Source of the DNA: an uncultured Clostridia bacterium
Lineage (GTDB): Bacteria > Bacillota > Clostridia > TANB77 > CAG-508
Assembly: GCA_934167965.1 (NCBI GenBank)
Contig: CAKPMJ010000002.1
Location: 90,907-154,906, forward strand
DNA: 64,000 nucleotides
Direction: 5' to 3'
Shown here: in pieces, positions 15,958 through 59,515 of the stretch
How positions within the stretch are numbered: the stretch's first letter is position 1
Layout: the number at the start of each line of letters is the position of its first letter
The notes under the pieces: generated by a model
Told to the model about the DNA's origin: nothing
Databases searched by the model: none
The model's input: only the letters and a program-made list of their open reading frames with translations
Translations under genes and position numbers: made by a program

Positions 15958-16656
15958 TTATTTACTTTTCATATATTTTGTAGACATATCTCCTTGATAT
16001 TTAGTAATTTTTACTTTATTTTTTTCTTCAACTGTCACAGTATGACCTACTGCTTGTAATTTTTCAATATATCCATCTTTTCCTACTAAAGCACTTTTTA
16101 AATAATCTTGATCCCCAATTGCTTTTATCTCATAAGGAGATGATATCCTTTGACTATTTACTTTTATAAATGTTTGTATGTATGCAAAATCGGTTTTATT
16201 TACTACTCTTTGACCATTTACTGATATAGCATCTGCTCCAGCATCTCTTAAATAATTTACTATTCTTAACAAAACATTAGCATCAATACTTTCAGTAGAT
16301 TCTGATGTTTCCTTTAATGTTATAATTATTCCTTTTCCTTCAACATCCGTCTGACCTAAAGCCTCTTTTAGTTTTTGTAATTCTTCTTCTAAATTTGCTT
16401 TTGATTTTTCATCTGAATTTGACTCTTCTTTATATTTATTCAAAGTTGCTGAAACTTCTTCATATTTTGATTGTGCTTCTGTATATTTTGTTTTCCAATT
16501 TACAAGTTCTGTTTGTAAATCTGCTTCTCTCATTTTATCTATAGCTGTTACATCTGTTTCATGAACTACTTTAAATTGCATAAATATAATCATAGATAAA
16601 ACAAAACATGCAATTCCTGTTGTTACTGTCATTATTATTGTTCCTTTTTTCTTCAT
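15958..16656 (-). CDS. DUF881 (YlxW/YlxX-like) division-associated membrane protein
   Basis: N-terminal TM, coiled coil, and a DUF881-like C-terminal domain (LLRIVNYLRDAGADAISVNGQRVV...SPYEIKAIGD). Confidence 0.65.
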   Translation of the reverse strand: MKKKGTIIMTVTTGIACFVLSMIIFMQFKVVHETDVTAIDKMREADLQTELVNWKTKYTEAQSKYEEVSATLNKYKEESNSDEKSKANLEEELQKLKEALGQTDVEGKGIIITLKETSESTESIDANVLLRIVNYLRDAGADAISVNGQRVVNKTDFAYIQTFIKVNSQRISSPYEIKAIGDQDYLKSALVGKDGYIEKLQAVGHTVTVEEKNKVKITKYQGDMSTKYMKSK

Positions 16657-16674
16657 AGCTCTCCTCCAATATTA

Positions 16675-17388
16675 TTATTTTGATGTGCTTTTTGCAGTTT
16701 TAAAACTTATTACTCCTGTATATTTAGGTATTGTTAAATTTTTAGCCTTTTTTAAATCTGTTTTTATTGTATATCCTTCTAAAAATTCTTTTAAATATCC
16801 TCCTGGTCTATTTAATGTTGCCATTTGTTCTGGAAGCCCTATTGCATTTATTACAAATGGAGAACTTGTTTTTTCTCCATTTATTGTTATAACATTTCCA
16901 TCACACATTATTGATGTTGTTGATACTATTCTATGTCCATTTACTTCAATCGCTTCTGCACCAGCATTTTTAAGTTCATTTACTATATATAGTATATCTA
17001 AATCATGTATTAACAAATCTTCTGGATTTAATGTGTTTGCTGTAGCTTTTCCATCTTCAACTGTTACTGTAACTCCCTGTCCTGTAACATCTGTTGAACC
17101 TAATAGCATATTGCATTTCTTTATTTCTTTTTCTAAATTTTCTAATTCCTTATTGTTACTTGATACATTTTGTCTAACTTGCTCAAGTTCTTTTTCTGCT
17201 CTTGTCAACATATAATATGTGTTATCATATTTTTCTTTAGTTTTTAAAACTTGATCCTTTAATTCTGTTACTTTGTTATTTCCTAAAGTTGTTCCATTAT
17301 TCATTACAGTTTTTACCTGTACACATATTGCAATTGTTAATATTAAACACATTATGCCTAATATTAAGGCTTGAATTTTTTTACTCAT
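16675..17388 (-). CDS. DUF881 (YlxW/YlxX-like) division-associated membrane protein, paralog
   Basis: Same architecture (LYIVNELKNAGAEAIEVNGHRIV...SPFVINAIG). Confidence 0.65.
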   Translation of the reverse strand: MSKKIQALILGIMCLILTIAICVQVKTVMNNGTTLGNNKVTELKDQVLKTKEKYDNTYYMLTRAEKELEQVRQNVSSNNKELENLEKEIKKCNMLLGSTDVTGQGVTVTVEDGKATANTLNPEDLLIHDLDILYIVNELKNAGAEAIEVNGHRIVSTTSIMCDGNVITINGEKTSSPFVINAIGLPEQMATLNRPGGYLKEFLEGYTIKTDLKKAKNLTIPKYTGVISFKTAKSTSK

Positions 17389-18160
17389 TTTTTTCTCCTT
17401 CCTCTATCACTTGTTCTCTAAAATATGGTTTAAATCCTTCACTTATATTTCCATTTACAAATATTATTCCTGGATTTTTCTTTTCCTCTTTTAACATTGT
17501 TTGGATATATAATATTTTGTTGTTTAAATTAGTACCATCTCCTAGATATATATACTTATTTTCTTTTTTTAGATATAATTTGTATTCATTCGGTTCTTTA
17601 ATATCTATTGAAGTTATTAAATTTTCTATTTCAATAGTTTTGGCTGATTCCATTATTTTAAGTACAGTATTTAATTTGGTTAAATCATTTTTATTTAATC
17701 TTTTTCCATTTAATAATTCATCTTGTGATGTCTCTATTCCATCTATAATAGGAACATTTTCTTTTTGACTTGAATTTTCTAATATATATCCTTGATTATC
17801 AATATATATATATCCATCTATAAGTTTTATTTGATATGCTACTTCTCTTTCTTGAATATCAATTTCAACTGTTCCTGGTAAATTTCTTTTTATTATAACT
17901 TTTTTTATATAAGAATTTTCTTGTATTTTTTTTATTATTTTTGATTTCTTGTTTCTAAATATGTTTTCTCCTTCACTTAATCCTGAAAGGCTTATTATTG
18001 TTTCTGCTTCTACTTTATTATTTCCTTTTACTTCTATTTTTGTTATATTAAATATTGGTGTTATTAATGAAAATACGACTATTGCTATTATAATAAATAT
18101 TAATAATATAAATTTTCTTAGTCCTGTTTTTTTTCTCTTCTTTTTTATATTTTTTTTCAT
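17381..18160 (-). CDS. divIB: Cell division protein DivIB/FtsQ (POTRA domain)
   Basis: Basic N-terminus, single TM, then POTRA-like KIEVKGNNKV...; position in the dcw-like cluster. Confidence 0.7.
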   Translation of the reverse strand: MKKNIKKKRKKTGLRKFILLIFIIIAIVVFSLITPIFNITKIEVKGNNKVEAETIISLSGLSEGENIFRNKKSKIIKKIQENSYIKKVIIKRNLPGTVEIDIQEREVAYQIKLIDGYIYIDNQGYILENSSQKENVPIIDGIETSQDELLNGKRLNKNDLTKLNTVLKIMESAKTIEIENLITSIDIKEPNEYKLYLKKENKYIYLGDGTNLNNKILYIQTMLKEEKKNPGIIFVNGNISEGFKPYFREQVIEEGEKNE

Positions 18161-18337
18161 TTTACCACCCCTTTGTAAGGATTTTTATAGATATTGATTG
18201 CTCTCATTTTTCGGCAATTTATATTTTACTATGAAATCATTAAAATATCAAGATTTTATTGAAAAAAGTTGCAGTAATTTTGTTTACACGACACAAAAGA
18301 AGAATGTAATTTTCAAACATTCTTCTTTTAATTTATT

Positions 18338-19360
18338 CTATTGTAAGTCGTTTACCTCTGAAATAGTAACTCCTGTATAAAAATGTTTAATAATATCTTC
18401 ATAATTACTTCCATTTTTAGCCATACTATCTGCGCCTGTTTGACTCATTCCTACTCCATGGCCATAACCTATAACAGAAAATATAACATCATCATTTTCT
18501 ATTTTTACAGTAAAATTAGCCGACTTTACCCCTAATAAACTTCTTGCTTCTGTTCCAGCAATTTGTATATTTCCAAATTTTATAGTTTTAACTCTTCCTC
18601 CACTTGTATAGTCAATAATTTTAATTGCCTCTTTGTCTTTAAAATCGATTTTTATATCATTATGTTTTTCTTTTAATTTTTTTATTAAATCATCTTTTGA
18701 TAATTTAACCTCTGAACTATATTGGGAATACTCCGTCTCGCCTGCTGTTTCAACACTTTGCAAATATGGAAAATTGCTTCCTCCCCATACATCTGCAACC
18801 GCCTCTGTTTTTCCTCCACTATTTGAGTGAAAAAACGCATCTATTGGTTTATTTTTATATGTAATAATTTTTCCTGATGTACTGTTTACTGCTTCAGTTA
18901 TCTTTTTCCAGTTACTTTCTCTTACATCTTCTTTCCATTTTTTCAGCCTATCTTCTTTAGATATCCACGCTTGACAACAAGCATAGTTATCACAAATATT
19001 TGCATCTTTATGTCTTTTTTTGCCATTCATAATTTGATATAATGTATATGTACGTGATACGACAGCTTGGGCTTTCAATGCTTCTATGTCATAACTTGCA
19101 GGCATCTCTGCTGATACTGTTCCATACAAATATTCATCAAATGGTACTTCTTCTATTTTTTCAGTAGCAGTATGATATAGTTTTATAGTTTTGTATTTTG
19201 AATAATTATATGTAGCTTCTTCTTGCTTACTTTCTTCTACTTTCTGTTCCTCTTTTACCTCTTCTTTTTTGTTTTCTTTTACAGTCCTTTTTGTACATAT
19301 TGCAGGCAAAACAAATATAATTATTAAAAAAATGGCAAAATATTTTAAATATTTTTTCAA
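18338..19360 (-). CDS. spoIID: Stage II sporulation protein D (SpoIID lytic transglycosylase family)
   Basis: SpoIID family motifs (ANICDNYACCQAW; GYGHGVGMSQTGADSMAKNG). Confidence 0.85.
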   Translation of the reverse strand: MKKYLKYFAIFLIIIFVLPAICTKRTVKENKKEEVKEEQKVEESKQEEATYNYSKYKTIKLYHTATEKIEEVPFDEYLYGTVSAEMPASYDIEALKAQAVVSRTYTLYQIMNGKKRHKDANICDNYACCQAWISKEDRLKKWKEDVRESNWKKITEAVNSTSGKIITYKNKPIDAFFHSNSGGKTEAVADVWGGSNFPYLQSVETAGETEYSQYSSEVKLSKDDLIKKLKEKHNDIKIDFKDKEAIKIIDYTSGGRVKTIKFGNIQIAGTEARSLLGVKSANFTVKIENDDVIFSVIGYGHGVGMSQTGADSMAKNGSNYEDIIKHFYTGVTISEVNDLQ

Positions 19361-24508: not shown

Positions 24509-24734
24509 ATAACTTCTCCTTTTTTTTACTACATATTACATTATACTATTTTTTTCAAATTTGTCAAGTGTTTAGCAAGTTTTGATAGCATAAATTTTCA
24601 GTAGGATTTCTCTTTTATAAAATTGTGAAACTATTTCTGCTGTTGAAATTCGAATTTCTAATTTAATTTTATATTTTTATCTTAATTTTTCTGTATTTTT
24701 AGAGTTCACTTAATAAACCTTTTTTAGACTATTT

Positions 24735-25601
24735 TCAAAATATCATATTTCCCTTATCTCTTATCTTCATTCTGTATTCATTTATTTTATATCCACAAAA
24801 ATTTACTCCTTGTTTTCCTTTAAATATTTGTGTTTTTTTATTTAATTCTAACTGTAATTTTTCTTTTAAAAATTTTGTTATTTGCTCTAGTGCATTTTTT
24901 GCCTCCTGTTTTGTTTCTACAATTAATACACTGTCATCTAAATACCTCGCATAATATTTTATATGTAATTTATGTTTTACAAATTGGTCTATTTCATTTA
25001 AATAAATATTTCCAAACATTTGAGATGTATAATTTCCTATTTCTAATCCTTTTTTTCTGGACTGTGAATATAATATTTCTTTTATAAGCCATATTATTTT
25101 TTTGTCTTTTATTTTTCTTTCTATTATTTCTAATAATATTTTTTTATTTATATTATCGAAATATTTGGCTACATCCATTTTTAATATATAATAATTTTTC
25201 CATTTATTTTTTGCTTTTTTCATACATGATTGTACATACAATGCTGCTCTATGCATTCCCCTTCCTTTTAAACAAGCATAAGAATTACTTATAAACGTTG
25301 GTACAAATGCTGGTTCTAAAAAGTTATCTACTAACCATCTATGTACTATTCTGTCTATATACCTAGATTTTTCTATTTTTCTTATTTTAGGTTCTGTTAC
25401 ATAAAATACTGTATATCCTCCATGTTTATATGTCATATCTTTTAATTTTTTATATAAATACATTATATATTCTTCTTGTTTTAAATAAAAATTTATATTT
25501 TCTATTCTATATCCTTTTCCCTTTTTAGATTTTATGTGTGCATCCATTAATTTTTCATAACTTAATTTTTTGTCATATTCATTTCTTATTGTCTTTGGCA
25601 T
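24735..25601 (-). CDS. Diversity-generating retroelement (DGR) reverse transcriptase
   Basis: RVT_1 domain with YARYLDD (YxDD) and the DGR-specific motif-4 variant LEIGNYTSQMFGNIYLNEID (IGxxxSQ instead of QGxxxSP). No maturase or endonuclease domain; N-terminus ...EPKIRKI...DRIVHRWL is typical of bRT-like RTs. Confidence 0.8.
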   Translation of the reverse strand: MPKTIRNEYDKKLSYEKLMDAHIKSKKGKGYRIENINFYLKQEEYIMYLYKKLKDMTYKHGGYTVFYVTEPKIRKIEKSRYIDRIVHRWLVDNFLEPAFVPTFISNSYACLKGRGMHRAALYVQSCMKKAKNKWKNYYILKMDVAKYFDNINKKILLEIIERKIKDKKIIWLIKEILYSQSRKKGLEIGNYTSQMFGNIYLNEIDQFVKHKLHIKYYARYLDDSVLIVETKQEAKNALEQITKFLKEKLQLELNKKTQIFKGKQGVNFCGYKINEYRMKIRDKGNMIF

Positions 25602-25962
25602 AATATTTTAATAATCCCCCTATTATTTTTCCTATTTCATATATCTGTTCTATTGCAATATTAAATTTTTTATTATCTATCCATCTGTTTTTATACATTA
25701 TTCTTAAAAATATTCGTTGAGTATTAAGCTCTGCATCTATTGCATTTATTATATTTAGACAATCTTTTGTTTCTTGTATTTTGCTTATATATAATACATC
25801 TTTTATCATTTTGTACATACTTGTTTTATATTCTGTCCCTATACTGAACTTTTCTATTCTTGGTATTTTTATTATTAAATTAATCATATATTCTACGTAT
25901 TTTTCTGTTTTAGGTATTAATATTAATTTATTTTCTTTTTCCTTATTCAATCTATTCACCAA
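25579..25962 (-). CDS. Avd-like accessory variability determinant (four-helix-bundle protein, PF05635-like)
   Basis: 127-aa basic helical protein overlapping the RT start by 23 nt. It resembles the four-helix-bundle/23S-IVS protein family (…AELNTQ…EIGKIIGGLLKYY). Confidence 0.65.
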   Translation of the reverse strand: MVNRLNKEKENKLILIPKTEKYVEYMINLIIKIPRIEKFSIGTEYKTSMYKMIKDVLYISKIQETKDCLNIINAIDAELNTQRIFLRIMYKNRWIDNKKFNIAIEQIYEIGKIIGGLLKYYAKDNKK

Positions 25963-26161
25963 CTTCTATCTCTAAATATCTTTCTAATGCAATTTCATAA
26001 TTCGTTTTTTCTTTGTGAATATTTTTAAGACATTCACTACATTTTTTATTTAATAATACCGCATCTTCTCCTATTGCAATATAAAATGCACCACATGATA
26101 CTAATATTATTTCATTTATATATATTTCTTTTAGTTTTAATATCATTTCATAAAAATTCAT
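25952..26161 (-). CDS. Small hypothetical ORF (69 aa) between the DGR target and avd
   Basis: ORF only; overlaps the avd start; function unknown. Confidence 0.3.
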   Translation of the reverse strand: MNFYEMILKLKEIYINEIILVSCGAFYIAIGEDAVLLNKKCSECLKNIHKEKTNYEIALERYLEIEVGE

Positions 26162-26288
26162 CTTTTATCATTCCTTTCTTTCTAAAAAAGGTGATATGCT
26201 ATTTTTTTGAACAAAAAAATAGCACACCACGCTAGTGGTGCACCACGCTAATTGCATTCGCTAATTATTATTAGCTTCTAATTTCCTA

Positions 26289-26373
26289 TATTTTCATAGC
26301 AATAGCCTTTTCTAGGTTATCGCTTTTAGAGTTCAGACCTACTTTATATAAAGTGTGAGGCGAGTAGAATAGT
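26289..26373 (-). repeat. Conserved post-VR element (IMH-like GC-rich block CTCGCCTCACAC, stop codon, 3' UTR), copy 1. The other copy, with one mismatch, is at 55861..55945.
   Basis: Direct comparison of the two loci. Confidence 0.7.
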
Positions 26374-27589
26374 TGGTGCTAGTATAGAGTGGACCGTCGT
26401 CGCTGCGAAGGCTAGGTGAATTGCTAATGCCGTGAAAACCACCACTGTAAGTACGACTGTAAGTGCTGTACGCCTCTAATGTCCACTCTAAACTATTTCC
26501 CAATAAATCATATATATTATTTAACTTATCTGTTGATACTGTTCCTGTTTTTCGCGTTGTATTTCTACTTGTTTTTACTCCTTCTAAATTTTTTGGAGTA
26601 GTTGATGTTACATCTATTCCATTTCCTTGCATCCACATCATCATTTGATCATATTGACTTCCCCATATCATACTACTTCCTACTACATTTGTTAATTTAT
26701 TTTTTCCACTATATTCTTTATCTTTTTGATATAATCCATACCATGTATTTGCACTACTAGTTTGCGCTGTTGCTGAAGTTGCTCCTGATACTGATTGGGC
26801 ATTTTTGGATGTTTCATTTAAACTAGTTTCATATCTTCCTACATAAAATCCTTTATTTTTTCCTACATATTTTATCATCTCATCAAATTCATTTTGTAAT
26901 TGTGTTTTCCACTTAGTTAGTATTTCTTCATCTGTTCCATTTAATCCTACTATATTTTTTAATAATCCAATTCCTTTTGTATCATCTCCTGTTACAGCAT
27001 CTCCAATTGTTGGATTTGATAAATAATCTGGTTCTCTCCTTCCTGTCACACTTGTCAATGCCATTATTCCTGATGTTTCTGTCCAGTTTAATGCTGTATA
27101 TCCACCTGAAGTAAAATCATAAAGTTTTCCTAGTTTCTTTCCTTCTGCATTTGTACCATACATTTTACTTACATCTTTTACTGGTACCCATACAAATTCA
27201 CTATTATCTGGGGCTACTACTACTATTCCTTTTTTTACTTCTGTTGGTGAATCTTCTTTTATTTTAAATCCTACTGGCACTACTATAGTTTCTCCATTAT
27301 CATCTTGTAATTTTGCTTTTCTTCCTTCTATAATTTTATTTTTATTGTCTTTTACCTTTCCTAAATTTCCTGTACTTTCCTCCATTAAGATTTCTAGATC
27401 TGTTAAGTCTTCTGTTTCATTTGCTTGTGCTTGCTCTGTTTTTGTTTTAGCCTCTGCTGCCTTTTTTAATATTCCATTCTCTCCTGATAGCATTGCTATT
27501 GCTACTCCTGCTAATATCAATAACACTATTATTGTTATTACTAGTGCTATTAATGTTATACCTTTGCTGGTATTTAATCTTTTTGTCAT
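26339..27589 (-). CDS. DGR target protein 1: pilin-like N-terminal signal/anchor plus C-terminal FGE-sulfatase/CLec-fold domain carrying a variable region
   Basis: N-terminus KGITLIALVITIIVLLILAGVAIAMLSGENGIL (type IV pilin/pseudopilin-like class III signal). C-terminus FYVGRYETS...NTWYGLYQ...SSMIWGSQYDQMMMW...NIYDLLGNSLEWTLE...RGG (FGE-sulfatase/CLec motifs). Its 3' end is a VR relative to the paralog at 55911..57149. Confidence 0.8.
   Translation of the reverse strand: MTKRLNTSKGITLIALVITIIVLLILAGVAIAMLSGENGILKKAAEAKTKTEQAQANETEDLTDLEILMEESTGNLGKVKDNKNKIIEGRKAKLQDDNGETIVVPVGFKIKEDSPTEVKKGIVVVAPDNSEFVWVPVKDVSKMYGTNAEGKKLGKLYDFTSGGYTALNWTETSGIMALTSVTGRREPDYLSNPTIGDAVTGDDTKGIGLLKNIVGLNGTDEEILTKWKTQLQNEFDEMIKYVGKNKGFYVGRYETSLNETSKNAQSVSGATSATAQTSSANTWYGLYQKDKEYSGKNKLTNVVGSSMIWGSQYDQMMMWMQGNGIDVTSTTPKNLEGVKTSRNTTRKTGTVSTDKLNNIYDLLGNSLEWTLEAYSTYSRTYSGGFHGISNSPSLRSDDGPLYTSTNYSTRLTLYIK
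26374..26510 (-). other. DGR variable region VR1 at the 3' end of target 1
   Basis: Locally GC-richer segment. It aligns gap-free with 55946..56080 and differs at 32 of 98 core positions, while both flanks are identical. Confidence 0.75.
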
Positions 27590-28111
27590 ATCGTTAATCT
27601 CCTTTCATTTTTTTCTAAAGTTTTGTAATTTTTTTAATTTTATTTTTATGTTTTTATTTTATTTAATAATAAAATTTTGTATTTTTTTATTCAAAATAAA
27701 TAATAGTTTATTGAACTATTCAGCAAAGATATTTAATTTTCAATGTGCTATTATTCATTTTTTCCTAAAAATTTACACGTTTATTATAGCATAGGGATTT
27801 TTATTTTTCAACCATTTTTAACAATTTATTTTTGCCTTACAAACTACATTTTACTTTTACTATTTACCAAATTTATTTTTATTTGCCATCTTTTTATTTT
27901 CTGATTTTACTCTCCGTACATATCTTTTCCACTCACATTATAATTGGTCATTTCTGTCGCTAAATTTTTTTCTGCTATTGTTAATGTTGGTAAAAAATCT
28001 GCAAGTGATCTATTTTCTTTTATTCCATATCTTGTCATCAACATATAAGTCTTCGATTTCTCTTTTGGCTCCCTTAGCTAAATTTATCTTTTATATCCAA
28101 GTTGCTCTTGA

Positions 28112-29860
28112 TCATTTCTTTGCTAATATTTTTTCAAATTCTTTAAATCTTTTTACTTTTTGAGTAGTAGTCTTTTCAAGTGGCTCAGTTGTTATTATTA
28201 ATTCTTTTATTCTCTTAAATACTGGTAAGCTCTTATTTATTTCTTTTATATCTTCCCATACCAAGTTTTTATATTCTTTTTCTGTTTTATCGCCGAATTT
28301 TTCTTTTATAATTTCTGGATCATATACTAATTTTATTCCTAGACTAATTTCTCCTTTTGTATTTTCTCTTGGATATAATATACTTTCTGTAACATAAGGT
28401 AATTTATTTACTAAGAATTCAATGTCACTTGGAAATACATTTTCACCATTTTTTAATACTATCACATCTTTCTTTCTTCCAGATATAAATAAATATCCAT
28501 CTTTATTATAGTATCCTAAGTCTCCTGTATGGAACCATCCATCTTTCATAACACTTTCTGTTGCTTCTGGGTTCTCATAATATCCAAGCATAACATTAGG
28601 TCCTTTTACAACTATTTCTCCAACACCATTTTCATCAACATCTTCTAATTTTAATTCAACATTATATGGTGCCATTCCTACACTTCCTGGGCATTTTTGT
28701 TTATCTGTTTCAGCTGCAACTAATGGTGATGTTTCTGTTAAACCATATCCTTGAACTGTTTCTATACCAAAACTGTTGTATCCATCTATTACTTTTTTAT
28801 CCATTGCTGCTGCTCCAAAATATGCTATTCTTAAATTCCCTCCAAGTTGATCTAACACACTTTTAAATAATTTTCTTCTTACATCTATATGTAGTTTTAA
28901 TAATCCATTGGCTAATCCACTCATTGTATCAACTAGTTTTGCTTTTCCTTGATCTTCTATAGATTTTCTTATCTTTTTATATATTGTTTCTAATACTAAT
29001 GGTACAGCAACAAATACACTTACTTTATATTCTACTAAGTTCTTAGCAATATATTTTAATCCATCACAAAATGCTACTGTAACTCCACTATAAAATCCAT
29101 ATAAAAATGTTATTGTGCATTCAAATGTATGATGTAATGGTAAAAATGATAATAAGACATCATTATCATACATTTTAGACATCTTAGCCATAGCAATTAT
29201 ATTAGATGTAATATTTTTTTGTGATAACATTACACCTTTTGCCATGCTTGTTGTTCCTGATGTAAATATTAATATACTCATTTTATTGTTATCAATTTTC
29301 ACATCTGCATATCTATGGTCACCATCTTCTATTTTCTTCATTCCTTGTTCAACTAATTCTTTAAATGATAATATACCATTTTCCTCTTTTTTCAAGTCCA
29401 TATTTATATAGTATTTTATTGTTTCGTTTTCTTCTCTTATACTATTGAAAACTTCGTTATATTTATTTTCATATATAACAGCATCAACTTTACTTCTTTC
29501 AATTAGATTTTTTATTTCTTGTTCTGGTAATGCTTTATCTAATGGCACTACTACCATATTAGATGTTGTTATTGCAAAATAACTTTCACACCATTCATAT
29601 CTATTATTTCCTATTAATGCAATTTTTTTATTTTCCAATCCTAATTCAAGTAACATTGTTCCCAATGCTTCTACTTCTTTTTTTACCTCTGAATAAGTTT
29701 TTTCTATTACTTTTTGATTCTTCTTCCCTAAGTTTTCTTTAAACTTGTATGCTACATTATTTGGGTATGTTTCACAACTATGGTTTATTAACTCCCTAAA
29801 ATTATTAATTTCATAAACTTCATAAAGATTACTATTTAATTTTTTCATTTTTCCCTCCAT
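28112..29860 (-). CDS. AMP-dependent synthetase/ligase (long-chain acyl-CoA synthetase, FAA1-type)
   Basis: AMP-binding motifs (IFTSGTTSMAKGV; GYGLTETSP; TGDLGYYNKDGYLFISGRKKD; VKRFKEFEK). Confidence 0.85.
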   Translation of the reverse strand: MEGKMKKLNSNLYEVYEINNFRELINHSCETYPNNVAYKFKENLGKKNQKVIEKTYSEVKKEVEALGTMLLELGLENKKIALIGNNRYEWCESYFAITTSNMVVVPLDKALPEQEIKNLIERSKVDAVIYENKYNEVFNSIREENETIKYYINMDLKKEENGILSFKELVEQGMKKIEDGDHRYADVKIDNNKMSILIFTSGTTSMAKGVMLSQKNITSNIIAMAKMSKMYDNDVLLSFLPLHHTFECTITFLYGFYSGVTVAFCDGLKYIAKNLVEYKVSVFVAVPLVLETIYKKIRKSIEDQGKAKLVDTMSGLANGLLKLHIDVRRKLFKSVLDQLGGNLRIAYFGAAAMDKKVIDGYNSFGIETVQGYGLTETSPLVAAETDKQKCPGSVGMAPYNVELKLEDVDENGVGEIVVKGPNVMLGYYENPEATESVMKDGWFHTGDLGYYNKDGYLFISGRKKDVIVLKNGENVFPSDIEFLVNKLPYVTESILYPRENTKGEISLGIKLVYDPEIIKEKFGDKTEKEYKNLVWEDIKEINKSLPVFKRIKELIITTEPLEKTTTQKVKRFKEFEKILAKK

Positions 29861-47009: not shown

Positions 47010-47768
47010 CTATTCCTCCTCTATTATTTTTTTAGCATGTACTACCACTCTATACTTGTTATTATTAGCACATGTTGACAATGTTAAAATAGAATCTTTT
47101 TTTGATACATCTATTTTAAAATCTTTGATACTTCTTTCTTTTATAGTTTGTATAAATTTCTCAAACTCACTATCATTTTTAAATTCAGTCTTAATATAAT
47201 AATCTTCTTCCTCTATCTTATAAATAGAAAATATTTGATATATATCATTTTGCTTCTCTGTATTAAGTATAATTTTTTCATTTTCTTTATTATTATACCA
47301 CTCCGATTTTAAAACTTTTTTCAAACTTCCAAACATTGAATTATCTCTTCTATTATGCCCATAAATCACAATATTTTTGTCTGTATTATCAAATTTATTT
47401 TTGTAGTCAGCAAAAATCCAACCGGCCGAGTTTATTTTTTTATTAAAACTATGTGTTAAATAAAATTCATTGTCTTTTGCCCTTACAATAGGATATTCAA
47501 TATTTGTATTATTTACTTTAATCCATGCAATAGTGTCATCATTTTGTTCTTTTAGTGATTTAAAATTTATATTATATTTTTCTTTTCCTTCATCAGAATT
47601 ATCATTTTCAACAATTACTGAATTATTTATTTGCCCCATTATATCATTACTCTCATTATTCTCTTTATACCATTTGTATATTTTTCCTTCTGAATATACT
47701 AACATACAAAATAATATCAAATAAATAAGTATATATTTTTTCTTCATCAAAACTCCCTTTCTCCACAT
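47010..47768 (-). CDS. srtB: Class B sortase (SrtB)
   Basis: Catalytic His in IYGHN and Cys in TLSTC; N-terminal signal anchor; size and motifs match SrtB. Confidence 0.8.
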   Translation of the reverse strand: MWRKGVLMKKKYILIYLILFCMLVYSEGKIYKWYKENNESNDIMGQINNSVIVENDNSDEGKEKYNINFKSLKEQNDDTIAWIKVNNTNIEYPIVRAKDNEFYLTHSFNKKINSAGWIFADYKNKFDNTDKNIVIYGHNRRDNSMFGSLKKVLKSEWYNNKENEKIILNTEKQNDIYQIFSIYKIEEEDYYIKTEFKNDSEFEKFIQTIKERSIKDFKIDVSKKDSILTLSTCANNNKYRVVVHAKKIIEEE

Positions 47769-52210: not shown

Positions 52211-53917
52211 TTATCCTTGTAATATTTTTTCCATCTCAACTTTTCTTTTTATTTTATGAGTTGTAGTCTTTTCAAACTCTTCATCTGTTATTAATAGATT
52301 TTTTATCCATTTATATTTTGGCATTGTTCTATTAACTACTTTTACTTCTTTCCATATAAGCTCTTTAATCTCATCTTCCGTAAGGTTTCCATATTTTTCT
52401 TGTATGTAATTTTTATCATATACAACCTTTACACTTACAGTTATGTCTTTATCCTTAAAATCTTCAGCACCATAAACCATTGATTCATCAACTAATGGAG
52501 AATTATTTAACAAAGTTTCTAGCTCTTCTGGATATACATTTTTTCCATTTGATAAAACAATAACAAATTTCTTTCTTCCTGAAATAAATATGTATCCATC
52601 TTTATCAATTTTTGCATAATCTCCTGTATGAAGCCATCCATCTTCTGTAAAAGCCTCTTTATTCGCTTCATCATCTCCAAAGTAACCTAGCATTACGCTA
52701 TCACCTTTTACAAGTAATTCGCCTACTCCTGTTTTTTCATCAACTTCATCTAATTTAACTTCTACACTTGGTAGTTTCTTTCCGATAGAGCCTATTCTTC
52801 TTTGATTTGTAAGCTCTGCTGCAATTACTGGTGATGTCTCTGTCAAACCATATCCTTGTAATAAATTAAATCCTAAGTCAAAAAATCCTTTTTCTACTTC
52901 TGGGCTTAAAGCTGCTCCTCCAGCAACCATAACCTTAATCTTTCCACCTAAGTTTTGATGAATATCTTTAAATAATCTTTTACGTACATCTATACCTACT
53001 TTAGATAAAATGTTGCTCATTTTTACTGCTGTTTTTACTGTTCCATCTTTACCTTTATCTTTTATTCCTTTTAGTAACTTTCCATACATTTTTTCATATA
53101 CAACTGGTACACAAATCATTGCAGTTATTCCAAATGTTTTCAATTCATCTGCAATATGTCTTACACCTTTAGAAAATACAATACTTGCTCCAATTGATAT
53201 TGGATATAAAAATCCTACTGTACATTCAAATGTATGATGTAATGGTAAAAATGATAATAATATATCTTCATCAGTAAGTTCAAAGGATTCTTGGATATCC
53301 ATAATATTAGTACATATATTTTTATGAGATAGCATTACTGCTTTTGATTTATTTGTTGTTCCTGATGTAAATAACATTATTCCCATTTCTTCGTTATTGA
53401 TTTCTGCATCTATAAATTCCTTATTTCCGCTATCTACTAATTCTTTTCCTTTTTCTAATATCTCTTTTAGAGAATATTTATCAAATACATGTTTTTCTAA
53501 ATCCATAGAAATAAAATATTTTAATTTTGAATCTCCCTTTTTTTGGATGTTTGCCATTGCCTCATCATATTTATTTGAATAGACTATAGCTTCAACTTCT
53601 GAACGCAAAATTAAACTTTCTATTTCATTTTCTGGTAATGCCTTATCTAAAGGTACAACTACACCAACTCCTGTAGCAATAGCAAGATATGCTAATTCCC
53701 ATTCATATCTGTTTTCACCTATTACAGCTATTCTTTTACCTTTTAAGCCCATTTCTATCATTGCAGTACCTAAATAATTTATTTCTTCTCTGAATTGTTT
53801 ATGTGTAATTTCTCTTACTCCAGATTTTTCTTGTAATAAATATGCTTTTTTGTCTCCATATTTTTCACCTGTCTGTTTTAACATATCTTTTAAATCTTTA
53901 AATTCCATAGTTCTCAT
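52211..53917 (-). CDS. AMP-dependent synthetase/ligase (long-chain acyl-CoA synthetase), paralog of 28112..29860
   Basis: LFTSGTTNKSKAV; GYGLTETSP; TGDYAKIDKDGYIFISGRKKF; C-terminal KIKRKVEMEK. Confidence 0.85.
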   Translation of the reverse strand: MRTMEFKDLKDMLKQTGEKYGDKKAYLLQEKSGVREITHKQFREEINYLGTAMIEMGLKGKRIAVIGENRYEWELAYLAIATGVGVVVPLDKALPENEIESLILRSEVEAIVYSNKYDEAMANIQKKGDSKLKYFISMDLEKHVFDKYSLKEILEKGKELVDSGNKEFIDAEINNEEMGIMLFTSGTTNKSKAVMLSHKNICTNIMDIQESFELTDEDILLSFLPLHHTFECTVGFLYPISIGASIVFSKGVRHIADELKTFGITAMICVPVVYEKMYGKLLKGIKDKGKDGTVKTAVKMSNILSKVGIDVRKRLFKDIHQNLGGKIKVMVAGGAALSPEVEKGFFDLGFNLLQGYGLTETSPVIAAELTNQRRIGSIGKKLPSVEVKLDEVDEKTGVGELLVKGDSVMLGYFGDDEANKEAFTEDGWLHTGDYAKIDKDGYIFISGRKKFVIVLSNGKNVYPEELETLLNNSPLVDESMVYGAEDFKDKDITVSVKVVYDKNYIQEKYGNLTEDEIKELIWKEVKVVNRTMPKYKWIKNLLITDEEFEKTTTHKIKRKVEMEKILQG

Positions 53918-55657
53918 TTATTCTGTTCCTTTCTCATTTTCCTGTTTTAATTTTAAATATCCCAATTCATTCCAACTATTATATGCTAAGTTCAATCTAA
54001 ATACAACTTTAGGTTTAGCTCCTGCTCTATTTTTATCAACAACACATGCATAATATCTAACATCAGGGTCATCAAATTTTTCTAAGTCATAAAATTTTGT
54101 ATCTACTTCTTTTAATGAATATTCATATTGGTCTAATGTGCTTCTTGGTATTTGTTTTATTAAACATAATGTATCTAATACCTCTTTTACTGTTCTACTA
54201 GCAGATAAATCATTTACATCTAAGTTTATAGGCAATGTTGCACTTTCTGTTAATTGAAGTGTTGACCCTATAAATATATTAAAGTCTTGCGCTAAATTTG
54301 ACAATATTGTTGCTGTTTTCTTTACCTCTTCTCCATTTCCAATATGTGCAGTATCTGTTTTTAATGTATCATAAAACATATATTGTATTTGTTCTTTATA
54401 ATAATAATTTTTTATTACTTTGCTTAATTCATCATTTGTATGATCTGTAATGTTTATAAAATATATTGCATTGTTTACTTGAGTATTTAACCAATCTGTA
54501 GCTTTCAATGTTTTATTAAAGTCTGATGAATATTTTTTTAATTTTTCTATAAACTCTGTTTGTGTTTCTTTTTTATTTCTTGCTATATAACCATTTTCGT
54601 CTATTTCTACATCATCTTTATTATCTGGTCTAAATTTTAATTCTAGTAATTCACCTTCGCTAATCTTTATTTTTTGTCCATGTATTTTTTGAATCTCTGG
54701 ATTATTTATAATTGTTGTAATCAAACATAGCTTCATTTTTTCTTCTGACATTTCATTTGAAATTACTAACACTTTCTTTTTATGTACAAAAGCAAGATAT
54801 GCGGCTAAATTTATTGTAAATCTACTTTTACCAGAGTTTGATGGCATTGCAAAAGCTGTTGTTTCTCCTCTTCTTATACCTTTAAACACACTTGATAATA
54901 TATTAAATGGTAAATTAAGACCTTTGGCTAAGTTATTTTCTCCTGCTGTCAAAAATTCTGTTATTCCTTCATTTAATACAGCTTGTTTAAATTTAGCTGT
55001 TACCTGTGCCTGATTCACTGCGCTTTCAACTTCCTCAATTGACATTTGGTCATATAATTCATAATTTACTATATCTACAATTTTATTTTGAATTGATTTT
55101 ATTGGTATTTCTAAATAACTTTTTCTTAATATAAATAATTTCTTTAGTTCAACATAAACTTTTTCAAAATCTATTCTTTCATTTTCGACTTTGTTTTTTA
55201 AATCTAATTTTAGTTGATATGACTCTTTTGTATCTTTTGCAAAATTATAATTTCTTTTTGCTTTTTCAGAGGCGTATTTATCACCTTCTGTAAATAAAAC
55301 ACTTTTATATAAATTTAATATCTCTTGATTTGCAAAATAATTTTCTTCAAATACAAAATAGTACATACTTATAGATTTAGGGTCATTCAACAAAAGTCCC
55401 ATATATTGCTCTTCAAGTTCTTCATTCATCAACGCATTTGGGTATATTTGCCCTTCTTCTGTTAAATAATCATCTTCTATTTTTTCCTCTTCTTCATCTG
55501 TTTTGTTTTCTTGTAATTTTTTTAATTCATATACTGCTTGCTCAACTTCATCGTTGTCTAACATTTCTTTTATCTCTTCTAATTTTTCTCTATTTCCCTT
55601 TGTTACAGGAATTGCTTTTAATAATTGATACATTTTTTCTTTTATTTCAGGATTCAT
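53918..55657 (-). CDS. Divergent DnaB-family helicase-like protein (N-terminal DnaB_N-like plus RecA-like C-terminal domain)
   Basis: YMGLLLNDPKSISMYYFVFEENYFAN (DnaB N-terminal pattern). Walker A-like GETTAFAMPSNSGKSRFTINLAAYLA. C-terminal VVDKNRAGAKPKVVFRL (DnaB KqRnGptG-like). Stop TAA abuts the ATG of the downstream ligase gene. Confidence 0.55.
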   Translation of the reverse strand: MNPEIKEKMYQLLKAIPVTKGNREKLEEIKEMLDNDEVEQAVYELKKLQENKTDEEEEKIEDDYLTEEGQIYPNALMNEELEEQYMGLLLNDPKSISMYYFVFEENYFANQEILNLYKSVLFTEGDKYASEKAKRNYNFAKDTKESYQLKLDLKNKVENERIDFEKVYVELKKLFILRKSYLEIPIKSIQNKIVDIVNYELYDQMSIEEVESAVNQAQVTAKFKQAVLNEGITEFLTAGENNLAKGLNLPFNILSSVFKGIRRGETTAFAMPSNSGKSRFTINLAAYLAFVHKKKVLVISNEMSEEKMKLCLITTIINNPEIQKIHGQKIKISEGELLELKFRPDNKDDVEIDENGYIARNKKETQTEFIEKLKKYSSDFNKTLKATDWLNTQVNNAIYFINITDHTNDELSKVIKNYYYKEQIQYMFYDTLKTDTAHIGNGEEVKKTATILSNLAQDFNIFIGSTLQLTESATLPINLDVNDLSASRTVKEVLDTLCLIKQIPRSTLDQYEYSLKEVDTKFYDLEKFDDPDVRYYACVVDKNRAGAKPKVVFRLNLAYNSWNELGYLKLKQENEKGTE

Positions 55658-55910
55658 ATTTTTTTTCCTCCTAGTATTTGTTCTTGCTTATTATATCATT
55701 TAGTTTTTTGTATTTCAAGTATTTTGTTAATAAATACTCCTGTATATATTTTTTTCATACTAATCTTGGTAAGCCTTTATTAACAAAAAAATTAGCCAAA
55801 ATCCTTAAATTTACTTTAAGAATTATTTGACTAATTTTTCCTTCTTTTATTAATTTTCTATATTTTCATAACAATAGCCTTTTCTAGGTTATCGCTTTTA
55901 GAGTTCAGAC

Positions 55911-57149
55911 CTACTTTATATAAAGTGTGAGGCGAGTAGAATAGTCGCTGCTAGTAAGGTACGGATGGTTGTTGGGGCGATTGCTAGGTGAAAAGCTAAG
56001 GCTGAAATAACCACCTCTGAGAGCACGACGGCTAGTGTAGTTCGCCTCTAATGTCCATTCATAACTATTTCCTAGTAAATCATATATATTGTTTAATTTA
56101 TCTGTTGAGACTGTTCCTGTTTTTCGTGTTGTATTTCTACTTGTTGTTACTCCTTCTAAATTTGTTGGAGTTTTTGATGTTACGTCTATTCCATTTTCTT
56201 GCATCCATATCATCATTTGATCATATTGACTTCCCCATATCATACTACTTCCTACTACATTTTTTATTTTATCTTGCCCACTATATTCTTTATCTTTTTG
56301 ATATAATCCATACCATGTATTTGCACTACTTGTTTCTGCTGTTGCCGATGCTACGCCAGATATTGATTGAGCATTTTTTGTTTCTGTGTTTAAACTTGTT
56401 TCATATCTTCCTACATAGAATCCTTTATTTTTTTCTACATATTTTATCATTTCATCAAATTCGTTTTGTAATTGTGTTTTCCATTTCGTTAGTATCTCTT
56501 CATCTGTTCCATTTAAACCTACTATACTTTTCAATAAAGCTATTCCTTTTGCATCATCCCCTGTTATTGCATCTCCATATGCTGTACTTGATAAATAGTC
56601 TGGCTCTCTGTAGTCTGTTGCACCTGTCCATTTCATAACTCCTGATGTCTCTGTCCAACTATTCGCTCTATATCCACTTGAAGTAAAGTTATAAAGTTTT
56701 CCTAGTTTCTTTTCTTCTGCATTTGTTCCATACATTTTACTTACATCTTTTACTGGCACCCATACAAATTCACTATTATCTGGTGCTACTACTACTATTC
56801 CTTTTTTTACTTCTGTCGGTGAATCTTCTTTTATTTTAAATCCTACTGGCACTACTATAGTTTCTCCATTGTCATCTTGTAATTTTACTTTTCTTCCTTC
56901 TATAACTTTATTTTTATTGTCTTTTACCTTTCCTAAGTTTCCTGTACTTTCTTCCATTAAAATTTCTAAATCTGTTAAGTCTTCTGTTTCATTTGTTTGT
57001 GCTTCTTCTGTTTTCATTTTAGCATCTGCAGCCTTCTTTAATATTCCATTTTCTCCTGATAGCATTGCTATTGCGACTCCTGCTAATATCAATAACACTA
57101 TTATTGTTATTACTAGTGCTATTAATGTTATTCCATTGTTTTTCTTCAT
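55911..57149 (-). CDS. DGR target protein 2 (paralog of 26339..27589) with a distinct C-terminal variable region
   Basis: Same pilin-like N-terminus (NGITLIALVITIIVLLILAGVAIAMLSGENGIL) and FGE/CLec domain. The C-terminal ~45 aa differ (…EANYTSRRALRGGYFSLSFSPSNRPNNHPYLTSSDYSTRLTLYIK). Confidence 0.8.
   Translation of the reverse strand: MKKNNGITLIALVITIIVLLILAGVAIAMLSGENGILKKAADAKMKTEEAQTNETEDLTDLEILMEESTGNLGKVKDNKNKVIEGRKVKLQDDNGETIVVPVGFKIKEDSPTEVKKGIVVVAPDNSEFVWVPVKDVSKMYGTNAEEKKLGKLYNFTSSGYRANSWTETSGVMKWTGATDYREPDYLSSTAYGDAITGDDAKGIALLKSIVGLNGTDEEILTKWKTQLQNEFDEMIKYVEKNKGFYVGRYETSLNTETKNAQSISGVASATAETSSANTWYGLYQKDKEYSGQDKIKNVVGSSMIWGSQYDQMMIWMQENGIDVTSKTPTNLEGVTTSRNTTRKTGTVSTDKLNNIYDLLGNSYEWTLEANYTSRRALRGGYFSLSFSPSNRPNNHPYLTSSDYSTRLTLYIK
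55946..56080 (-). other. DGR variable region VR2
   Basis: See VR1; mismatches are confined to this block. Confidence 0.75.
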
Positions 57150-58875: not shown

Positions 58876-59235
58876 ATGACTATGGCAGTTATAAGACCAT
58901 GCGCAGATTTAAGAAATAAATATAATGAAATCTCTAAAATTTGCCACCAAACTCAAAAACCTATATATATTACTAAAAACGGTACAAATGATCTGGTAGT
59001 TTTAAGTGATGAGGCTTATGAGGAAATCGTAAAATCAACACAAGAAAAAGTTGAAGAAAAAATTAAAAAACTTATTTCTAAACAATTTGATAAACATTAT
59101 AATGATTTTGAGCAATTTAAAAAAGACATTTTCAGGAAAATTGAACAATCCATTAAAGAAATAGAAAATGGTAATTGTATACCTATGGAAAACATCGTTG
59201 CAGAAATGGAGGAAATCTATGACTCCACTAAATAA
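58876..59235 (+). CDS. Phd/YefM-family type II antitoxin (with a longer C-terminal helical extension)
   Basis: N-terminus RNKYNEISKICHQTQKPIYITKNGTNDLVVLSDEAYEEI matches the Phd/YefM fold. Confidence 0.7.
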   Translation: MTMAVIRPCADLRNKYNEISKICHQTQKPIYITKNGTNDLVVLSDEAYEEIVKSTQEKVEEKIKKLISKQFDKHYNDFEQFKKDIFRKIEQSIKEIENGNCIPMENIVAEMEEIYDSTK

Positions 59236-59515
59236 ATACCAAATCTCTTGGTCTCCTCAAGCTTATAAAGATCTTAAGGAAATATATAATTATATTTCGA
59301 ATACTTTAAAAGAAAAAAACATAGCCAAAAAAATTACTAGTAAACTTTTAAAATCAATATTAAACTTGAGTTATCTACCAGAAAGATATCCAAAAATTTC
59401 AAATTTTAATGATAATAGCAAGAACATTCGAAAAATGCTGGTAGATAACTACATAATTATTTATGAAATTCATAATTTTACTCGGAAAAGTATTTATATT
59501 AAATATATTTCATAG
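59219..59515 (+). CDS. RelE/ParE-family type II toxin
   Basis: Start ATG 59219 with RBS GGAGG; overlaps the antitoxin by 17 nt; YQISWSPQAYKDLKEI...IRKMLVDNYIIIYEI pattern. Confidence 0.65.
   Translation: MTPLNKYQISWSPQAYKDLKEIYNYISNTLKEKNIAKKITSKLLKSILNLSYLPERYPKISNFNDNSKNIRKMLVDNYIIIYEIHNFTRKSIYIKYIS

Follow-up and report, generated by a model that had tools for sequence, protein, structure and literature searches.

How Gram-positive gut bacteria display the variable proteins of their cellular diversity-generating retroelements (DGRs) is a question raised in a specific form by a 64-kb stretch of contig CAKPMJ010000002.1 from an uncultured Clostridia bacterium (64,000 nucleotides, hereafter the window, to which all positions refer). 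It encodes two DGR variable proteins, here named T1 and T2, that share their N-terminus: what does this N-terminus do for proteins whose other end is diversified? A reading made from the DNA letters alone (the sequence-only reading) had proposed that it is a class III signal resembling those of type IV pilins or pseudopilins. Our own answer is tentative, i.e., with a probability of roughly 0.45 the first ~35 residues of T1 and T2 are a divergent class III signal of the type IV pilin kind, lacking the glutamate at position +5 (Glu5) and acting by the route set out below. From one end to the other both proteins consist of a basic leader, an invariant Gly and a near-invariant hydrophobic helix of 25 residues, which a G[ED]NG hinge joins to a stalk, likewise helical but charged; an FGE/C-type-lectin domain comes last, and its C-terminal variable region was written by a DGR.

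The shared N-terminus and its conservation

Positions 27480-27589 correspond to codons 1-37 of T1, a gene with the ribosome-binding site AAAGGAG located 8-9 nt ahead of its ATG (coordinates of the features are collected in Table 1). The T1 protein starts with MTKRLNTSKG and the T2 protein with MKKNNG, in each case followed by ITLIALVITIIVLLILAGVAIAMLSGENGILKK, and the description of both targets as opening with a short basic leader and a Gly, with identical sequence after it, is therefore correct. The leaders carry net charges of +3 (T1) and +2 (T2). Overall the two proteins are 83% identical, and from the Gly (position -1) through +35 they do not differ at all. Behind the leader Gly both read ITLIALVITIIVLLILAGVAIAMLSGENGIL, with Ala at +5, an uncharged run of 26 residues and an acidic residue at +27, within the GENG motif. 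The sequence-only reading had also pointed to the replacement of the conserved +5 Glu by Ala and to a later Glu in LSGENG; both are found, and both Ala at +5 and G[ED]NG are conserved in the wider family. When all six frames of the 64 kb were searched for prepilin-like motifs, the start of T1 and the start of T2 were the only sites at the beginning of an open reading frame (ORF).

A profile of the leader was scored against 1.84 billion representative proteins and recovered 31,217 leader-bearing clusters at E<=1e-3, of which 18,066 reached E<=1e-10, with protein lengths of 63-706 amino acids (the 55-residue N-terminus alone, used as a homology query, returned mostly short fragments and was not informative). 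The leader has a median length of 10 residues in this family. At -1 it has Gly in 97-99% of cases and otherwise almost only Ala (97% and 3%, respectively, in a set of 196 distinct homolog N-termini), i.e., the two residues that prepilin peptidases accept at this position. Within the same, partly preselected set, conservation at +1 to +18 is 94-99%, and values of 95-100% were also obtained for the helix, against an identity of just 30-45% between the ectodomains of these homologs. Of 378 relatives, 374 share the Ala that T1 and T2 have at +5. Conservation extends into the hinge (L[ST]G[ED]NGIL..A..AK), where G at +26 is found in 98%, E or D at +27 in 88%, N at +28 in 96% and G at +29 in 96% of the family.

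Each conserved leader residue uses three to six synonymous codons among 79 distinct DNA copies. As synonymous codons vary this freely, the conservation of the leader reflects selection on the protein, residue by residue, as in the first half of the pilin N-terminal helix (alpha1N), and the same variation rules out gene conversion or recombination between paralogs as its cause. In the most divergent leaders the sole invariant columns are Gly at -1 and Thr at +2. A plain membrane anchor would have no reason to fix a residue at the boundary between the basic and the hydrophobic region (n/h boundary), and the invariance of these two positions therefore disfavors it.

Likeness to type IV pilins and a possible route to the surface

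A class III signal has been defined as a hydrophilic leader whose last residue is Gly or Ala, together with 20-25 hydrophobic residues behind it and, "often, but not always", Glu at +5 (PMC10191384). T1 and T2 both have the short basic leader with its terminal Gly and the 26 uncharged residues behind it. An AlphaFold2 model of T1 was built from 48 homologs (predicted local distance difference score, pLDDT, 91.7; predicted template-modelling score, pTM, 0.85); in it, residues 7-35 are helical, SGEN (36-39) interrupts the helix, residues 40-73 form another one, and a globular domain reaches to the C-terminus. With leader, Gly and hydrophobic stretch all present, the two proteins have everything in the published definition except Glu5, a residue that is also absent from the subunit capping the tip complex of type IV filaments (PMC10191384).

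The leader profile was also searched against all 177,635 distinct sequences of the PDB at E<=10. Only seven matches were obtained, and six of them are type IV pilins: PilE1 (E 0.0017), MshA (0.0035), Geobacter PilA-N (0.0042 and 0.011) and two PilA. The pilins match in register, with Gly at -1, TLI at +2 to +4 and ILA at +15 to +17 aligned (as seen in the printed alignments for the best four and in the matched ranges for the other two). Statistically, nothing else in the PDB comes as near in sequence to the N-terminus of T1 and T2 as the N-termini of type IV pilins do. Pfam N_methyl (PF07963) is the best or near-best match of both proteins as well, with 18.0 bits for T2 and 13.1 bits for T1, and it is found at E<=1e-3 in 40 of 148 family representatives, including one member shown individually at 21.7 bits, just over the cutoff. 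One relative has been named "type II secretion system GspH family protein" by the NCBI pipeline.

We postulate the following route. The signal recognition particle and Sec would insert the protein with the leader on the cytoplasmic side, and a prepilin peptidase of the PilD/ComC type would then cleave off M1-G10 of T1 or M1-G6 of T2. For such cleavage only the Gly or Ala at -1 is critical. The helix would remain as the mature N-terminus and hold the protein in the membrane, and from this membrane pool the protein could either be displayed directly or enter a type IV filament as its first subunit, the one that caps the tip, in both cases presenting the lectin domain for binding of an external ligand. 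A position at the tip would fit, since a tip cap needs no Glu5 (PMC10191384) and only a tip would accommodate a head of 320 residues, as argued for modular pilins (PMC8179133).

Among known systems, modular type IV pilins come close to this arrangement. Pilins with grafted adhesive modules are widespread, and it has been argued that their large heads can be accommodated only at the tip (PMC8179133). PilB and PilC of Streptococcus sanguinis, with a vWA and a lectin module, respectively (PMC8179133, PMC9934059), resemble T1 and T2 in combining a class III signal with a grafted adhesive module that is not pilus-specific, in their predicted location at the filament tip and in their monoderm hosts. 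Their pilin module, however, is complete (alpha1 with its beta-sheet head), they carry recognised IPR012902 motifs, and their genes belong to the pil locus, whereas T1 and T2 have only an alpha1N-like helix and a stalk, lack Glu5 and lie scattered among housekeeping genes. A complete pilin module joined to a functional module, the hallmark of modular pilins, is hence present in its functional half only, the pilin half being reduced to helix and stalk. Tip-capping minor pilins and pseudopilins of the GspK/PilK type (PMC10191384, PMC8179133) share with T1 and T2 their large size and a residue other than Glu at +5, and they form the first subunit at the tip; in contrast to T1 and T2, GspK is folded like a pilin into which an alpha-domain has been inserted, its gene lies with those for GspI and GspJ in the machinery operon, and beyond the N-terminus we found no sequence similarity between T1 or T2 and this type. 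Geobacter PilA-N (PDB 7tgg, 9egp), among the best in-register profile matches, is like T1 in having its pilin part cut down to the alpha1 helix. It differs in having Glu5, in its size (60-70 amino acids) and in pairing with a separate head protein, PilA-C, whereas the 320-residue ectodomain of T1 is covalently attached.

Prepilin-type signals without Glu5 have also been described outside classical filament subunits, on archaeal ligand-binding proteins (2007 work, ref. 43 in PMC10191384); these are cleaved by a prepilin peptidase and differ from T1 and T2 in depending on a dedicated assembly system (Bas), in having no sequence relation and in involving no DGR. On the DGR side, variable proteins with the same C-type-lectin/FGE fold are known in TaqVP (5vf4), TvpA (2y3c) and Mtd (1yu0). 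TvpA is a lipoprotein and Mtd sits at the tip of a phage tail fibre, and neither has a pilin-like N-terminus, unlike T1 and T2. In Bacteroides, DGRs diversify adhesins of type V pili (bioRxiv 10.1101/2024.11.15.621889), a parallel in that a DGR of gut bacteria acts on the adhesive component of a pilus; these pili, made from lipoprotein precursors by strand exchange in diderm Bacteroidota, have no relationship to type IV filaments. Taken together, T1 and T2 work most like modular or tip minor pilins, yet as type IV pilins they fall short in Glu5, head domain and genomic linkage.

Searches of the literature on DGRs and prepilins, on the leader sequence and on DGRs and N-terminal methylation found nothing, and we found no description of the Glu5-less leader family or of its link to DGRs. 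A large DGR survey makes no mention of pilins (PMC5758913), and another lists a GspG-type pilin domain among the rare domains that hold a variable region (PMC11661182). If the signal is a true prepilin signal, a large share of the surface proteome of uncultured gut Clostridia, including DGR lectin domains and dockerin proteins, would be shown via type IV filament machinery, and these proteins would have been missed by pilin predictors because those require Glu5. The model places hypervariable binding domains at a filament tip, which is directly testable, and the invariant leader offers a possible handle for cataloguing the proteins that bear it.

Arguments against a pilin signal and rival explanations

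A considerable body of results weighs against a pilin signal. Neither T1 nor T2 nor any of the 378 members has Glu or Asp at +5. Both proteins stay below the PF07963 cutoff of 21.2 bits, and TIGR02532 gives nothing at E<=1 with either of them. The PilFind rule combines [GAS]-x4-[DE] with 14 uncharged residues thereafter, a single transmembrane segment near the N-terminus and a protein length below 350 amino acids (PMC3244431). Applied as a regular expression, it does not match the N-terminus of T1 or T2 because there is no Glu or Asp at +5 (the sole core motif, AMLSGE, lies past the helix), and with 416 and 412 amino acids both proteins exceed the length limit. Weak NCBIfam matches of the leader region are to the FliL membrane anchor in 135 of the 148 representatives and to PilA or GspG in 12-13; given that FliL-anchor matches are the commonest, profile likeness of such hydrophobic segments is only moderately specific. 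The T1 model lacks the "lollipop" fold of pilins, with alpha1C on a beta-sheet head, and the several to many paralogs per genome are atypical of minor pilins.

The genomic surroundings add to this. Neither the window nor the 10 kb adjoining it on the left encodes a pilus ATPase, platform protein or peptidase (PilB/PilC/PilD-like), and the 64 kb plus ~10 kb covered, on a scaffold of at least 372 kb, contain no Peptidase_A24. A motif screen of ~1.2 Mb flanking more than 80 related loci detected no Walker A motif of the T2SSE type, no A24-like motif (GGGDxK) and no canonical prepilin (G-F-T-L-x-E), and clustering of the flanking genes yielded DGR parts as the only recurrent neighbor families, in just 7 of 80 loci; in total, the flanks of about 100 related loci were surveyed and no pilus-biogenesis gene was seen. 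Furthermore, homologs of the same ectodomain in other metagenome-assembled genomes (MAGs) or species bear ordinary transmembrane anchors without the G-ITL motif, so simple membrane anchoring seems enough for function. The conservation figures given above are also partly selected, the sequences having been retrieved with leader or ectodomain as the query. The sequence-only reading thus fares unevenly. Its class III layout stands and is reinforced by the in-register pilin matches in the PDB, but the family thresholds (PF07963, TIGR02532), the pilin head and nearby pilus genes are all wanting; of the checks that had been named with it, the PilFind rule went against it, the model of the full-length protein showed no pilin head, and no pilB/pilC/pilD homolog was seen within the window and ~10 kb.

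Many of these results would be expected if the N-terminus were an uncleaved signal anchor, T1 and T2 being type II membrane proteins in which contact with a membrane partner or self-association conserves the helix and the pilin likeness is convergent or vestigial. The generic anchors on homologous ectodomains in other species, the lack of pilus genes near any locus examined, the missing Glu5 and pilin head and the prevalence of FliL-anchor matches all agree with it, and cellular DGR targets are generally reported to be membrane-anchored (PMC8144416). Such an anchor leaves unexplained why Gly or Ala at the n/h boundary and Thr at +2 are invariant, why identity is near 100% over 18 positions with free synonymous change, and why the PDB matches are almost only pilins, in register. 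By our own estimate, moreover, the stalk of only 34 residues (~5 nm) would leave the lectin domain buried in the Gram-positive cell wall unless it is carried on a filament, a poor placement for binding cells or particles. We regard this explanation as a serious possibility, although on the whole a doubtful one. It bears on a further suggestion of the sequence-only reading, that the context of T1 and T2 differs from the best-known ones of DGR targets: the pilin-like nature of the anchor is new, but cellular DGR targets have already been reported to be anchored in the membrane by their N-terminus as a rule (PMC8144416). Should the leader be an anchor and nothing more, what is left is a membrane anchor, well conserved, on DGR targets of a familiar kind.

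It could also be that the leader marks the cargo of a dedicated, undescribed display system that resembles type IV filaments and has its own machinery (e.g., divergent clostridial Tad-like loci) rather than the classical Pil or Com components. The family is uniform in spite of its great size (18,066 clusters at the stricter threshold), and Ala at +5 sets it apart as a class of its own without intermediates; Pfam recognizes next to nothing in a divergent Tad-like locus 6 kb from one relative (P0092), and clostridial tad-like loci without a recognizable prepilin substrate have been reported by Imam et al. (PMC3244431). This locus, however, has small putative pilins of its own (MENASKALI...) and no G-ITL protein, and the proximity is seen in one relative only, and we consider a dedicated system of this kind quite improbable. 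A broader claim, which we hold to be unlikely though less so, is that the leader marks a clostridial surface class of at least 18,000 clusters that serves as cargo of a type-IV-filament-like system, G followed by ITLIALVITIIVLLILAG being a helix-only module that bears interchangeable binding domains (lectin folds diversified by DGRs, dockerins and LRRs) to the tip. Were it true, DGRs of gut Firmicutes would diversify pilus-tip adhesins, in parallel to the type V pili of Bacteroides.

A soluble secreted protein starting with MLSGENG, released from a Sec signal peptide by signal peptidase I after A30-I31-A32, is very improbable indeed: the small residues at -3 and -1 that this enzyme follows as a rule are there in T1 and T2 (AIA before M, behind a hydrophobic core), and 32 residues in total are typical of Gram-positive signal peptides, but a conserved small-x-small motif is absent from the family, AIA being replaced by INS, INL, IDL or IQV in divergent members ([AST]-I-[AS] not conserved; N, Q, D, L and V occur) while Gly at -1 and Thr at +2 are invariant, a 26-residue uncharged run is long for the hydrophobic region, and such peptides are normally poorly conserved whereas this leader is almost invariant.

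The retroelement, the leader family and their surroundings

The C-terminal domain of T1 and T2 has the C-type-lectin/FGE fold of DGR variable proteins, its FGE-like part starting ~20 residues past the stalk helix in the T1 model. Differences between the two variable regions are nearly all at codon positions 1 and 2, with the third base kept C or T, whereas those outside the variable region are mostly at third positions. The variable region has 49% GC and 24% A, whereas the gene outside it has 31% GC and 47% A. Position 1-2 changes, the C/T third base and the GC-rich, A-poor stretch are the AAY signature of DGR mutagenesis. The combination that characterizes DGR variable proteins, i.e., a C-terminal variable region within this fold and adenine-specific (AAY) variation, is therefore present, and T1 and T2 are genuine DGR targets, as had been claimed at the outset; avd and a reverse transcriptase gene adjoin T1.

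The cassette itself has decayed. In intact relatives the reverse transcriptase measures 335-349 amino acids and the template repeat lies directly 3' of it, with an A-to-N pattern relative to the variable repeat; in one related cassette (L011), 21 of the 22 mismatches between the two repeats are at adenines of the template. Here, homology to the related cassettes ends at 24748-24755, inside the reverse transcriptase gene (downstream region to 24265), and low-stringency blastn and a repeat finder detected no template repeat in the window. Neither a cognate template repeat with A-to-N mismatches nor an intact reverse transcriptase is thus found in the window, and since the enzyme is truncated and the template missing, we regard this DGR as a remnant. 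Unless a second DGR works on them in trans, the T1 and T2 variable regions have probably ceased to change. The local decay of the DGR had escaped the sequence-only reading, as had the fact that the leader is a module of a very large and mostly non-DGR family.

T1 and T2 also share their 3' flank, which contains an imperfect hairpin (GCGATAACC-TAGAAAA-GGCTATTGC) and beyond which the sequences diverge completely; from what is generally known of DGRs, it is a probable target-recognition element. The motif TGAACTCTAAAA recurs just past the truncated reverse transcriptase (about 24705-24720) and may be a trace of the deletion that took out the template repeat. The small MutS_I-like ORF between T1 and avd fits the MSL (MutS-like) class of DGR accessory genes (Wu et al., PMC5758913). 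Longer homologs (130-152 amino acids) hold the same position between target and avd in related cassettes, relative to which it seems to be shortened.

Table 1 Features of the two DGR targets and the DGR cassette in the window
Feature	Position	Strand	Evidence or remark
T1, 416-aa variable protein (pilin-like leader, helical stalk, FGE/C-type-lectin ectodomain)	26339-27589	minus	
T1 leader peptide M1-G10 (MTKRLNTSKG), charge +3, ending in invariant Gly at -1	27560-27589	minus	family: -1 Gly 97-99%
T1 hydrophobic helix I11-S35 (ITLIALVITIIVLLILAGVAIAMLS), pilin alpha1N-like, Ala at +5	27485-27559	minus	model helix 7-35; in-register pilin profile matches
T1 hinge G36-E37-N38-G39 (G[ED]NG), outer end of helix, conserved	27473-27484	minus	helix break 36-39 in model
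T1 charged helical stalk, residues 40-73	27371-27472	minus	helix 40-73 in AlphaFold2 model
T1 ectodomain, about residues 95-416, FGE/C-type-lectin fold of DGR variable proteins	26342-27307	minus	
T1 variable region, codons 374-406	26372-26470	minus	20 codons differ from T2
T1 stop codon and ~60 nt of 3' flank, shared with T2 at 55850-55913 (minus)	26278-26341	minus	2 mismatches
T2, 412-aa paralog of T1, remote target 28 kb from the DGR cassette	55911-57149	minus	
T2 leader M1-G6 (57132-57149) and hydrophobic helix I7-S31 (57057-57131)	57057-57149	minus	
T2 variable region, codons 370-402	55944-56042	minus	
Small MutS_I-like (MSL-type) DGR accessory ORF, 69 aa, between T1 and avd	25952-26161	minus	Pfam MutS_I E 8.7e-5
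avd (DGR accessory variability determinant)	25579-25962	minus	Pfam bAvd 8.4e-17; NCBIfam DivGenRetAVD 9.2e-19
DGR reverse transcriptase remnant, 288 aa, without ~55 C-terminal residues	24735-25601	minus	RVT_1 1.8e-19
Promoter-like site TTGAAA-17-TATAAT with TG extension, ~195 nt upstream of T1	27783-27811	minus	11/12 matches; consensus match only
Terminator-like hairpins downstream of T1	26191-26246	minus	

Behind the leader, the best 148 representatives of the family carry, among others, dockerin (24), Glug (5), FGE-sulfatase (5) and BspA-type leucine-rich repeat (LRR_5; 3) domains, all of which are extracellular binding modules. The leader is not peculiar to DGRs, to which most of the family has no link, but a display module that uncultured gut Clostridia use generally. 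Relatives of the T1 ectodomain occur at no fewer than 479 places in species-representative genomes, often several per genome and up to four in tandem. The 80 ectodomain loci that were retained all derive from MAGs of uncultured gut Clostridia or from Clostridium sp. CAG:273, with rabbit, Hadza, goat, chicken and mouse as recognizable sources. In 2.9 million viral contigs the ectodomain turned up at just 2 loci and the leader at 12, and a phage origin is unlikely for this reason.

The dockerins found in 24 of these 148 representatives (P0362-P0509) are of type I, which suggests that the leader tethers cohesin/dockerin assemblies, similar to cellulosomes or amylosomes, to the cell. On a conspecific scaffold (L104), ~4-7 kb past the left edge of the window, two tandem genes (16563-17876 and 17892-19181) encode proteins of 437 and 429 amino acids with an identical leader and a different, apparently DUF1566/Lcl-like ectodomain that ends in ...RPVVSLK; their last ~35 residues are densely different and could be further variable regions. 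We also considered whether a short "major pilin" with the same leader exists, but the candidates of 56-60 amino acids turned out to come from the 5' parts of genes that are split or frameshifted. In two MAGs the leader ends prematurely at the same place (...LLILARNFDF) and an ectodomain ORF follows (L025, 2763-4393; L033, 9351-10882), and other short ORFs consisting of the leader alone (L086, L087) are split genes as well. Frameshift-prone tracts, phase variation or assembly errors could account for them.

In Pfam-annotated contexts, leader genes occur singly or in tandem arrays between housekeeping operons. The Tad-like cluster near P0092 (L103, 7303-19190, also at the end of L003) is very divergent, has almost no Pfam matches and comprises a CpaB-like protein, two ParA/TadZ-like proteins, CpaF and a polytopic protein of 695 amino acids, followed by four small proteins that start with MENA(S/A)(K/E)AL.(I/M)AG and a hydrophobic helix and may represent a distinct class of putative pilins. 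With small putative pilins of its own and no G-ITL protein, the cluster has no demonstrated link to the leader.

The window itself encodes housekeeping and sporulation genes (spo0A, clpXP, ftsAZ, sigF, adhE and others), together with ComEC and sortase B. Inspection of translations alone places a class B sortase-like gene at 47010-47768 (minus strand); as T1 and T2 carry no sorting signal of the LPXTG type, they have no apparent link to sortase. Each target lies near one of two paralogous genes for a long-chain acyl-CoA synthetase (AMP-binding; 28112-29860 and 52211-53917, both on the minus strand), and a DnaB-like helicase with a long N-terminal extension follows T2 (53918-55657). Translations also point to a Phd/RelE-type toxin-antitoxin-like pair (58876-59515, plus strand) and to an alpha-2-macroglobulin-like surface protein of 1417 amino acids (59656-63909, minus strand).

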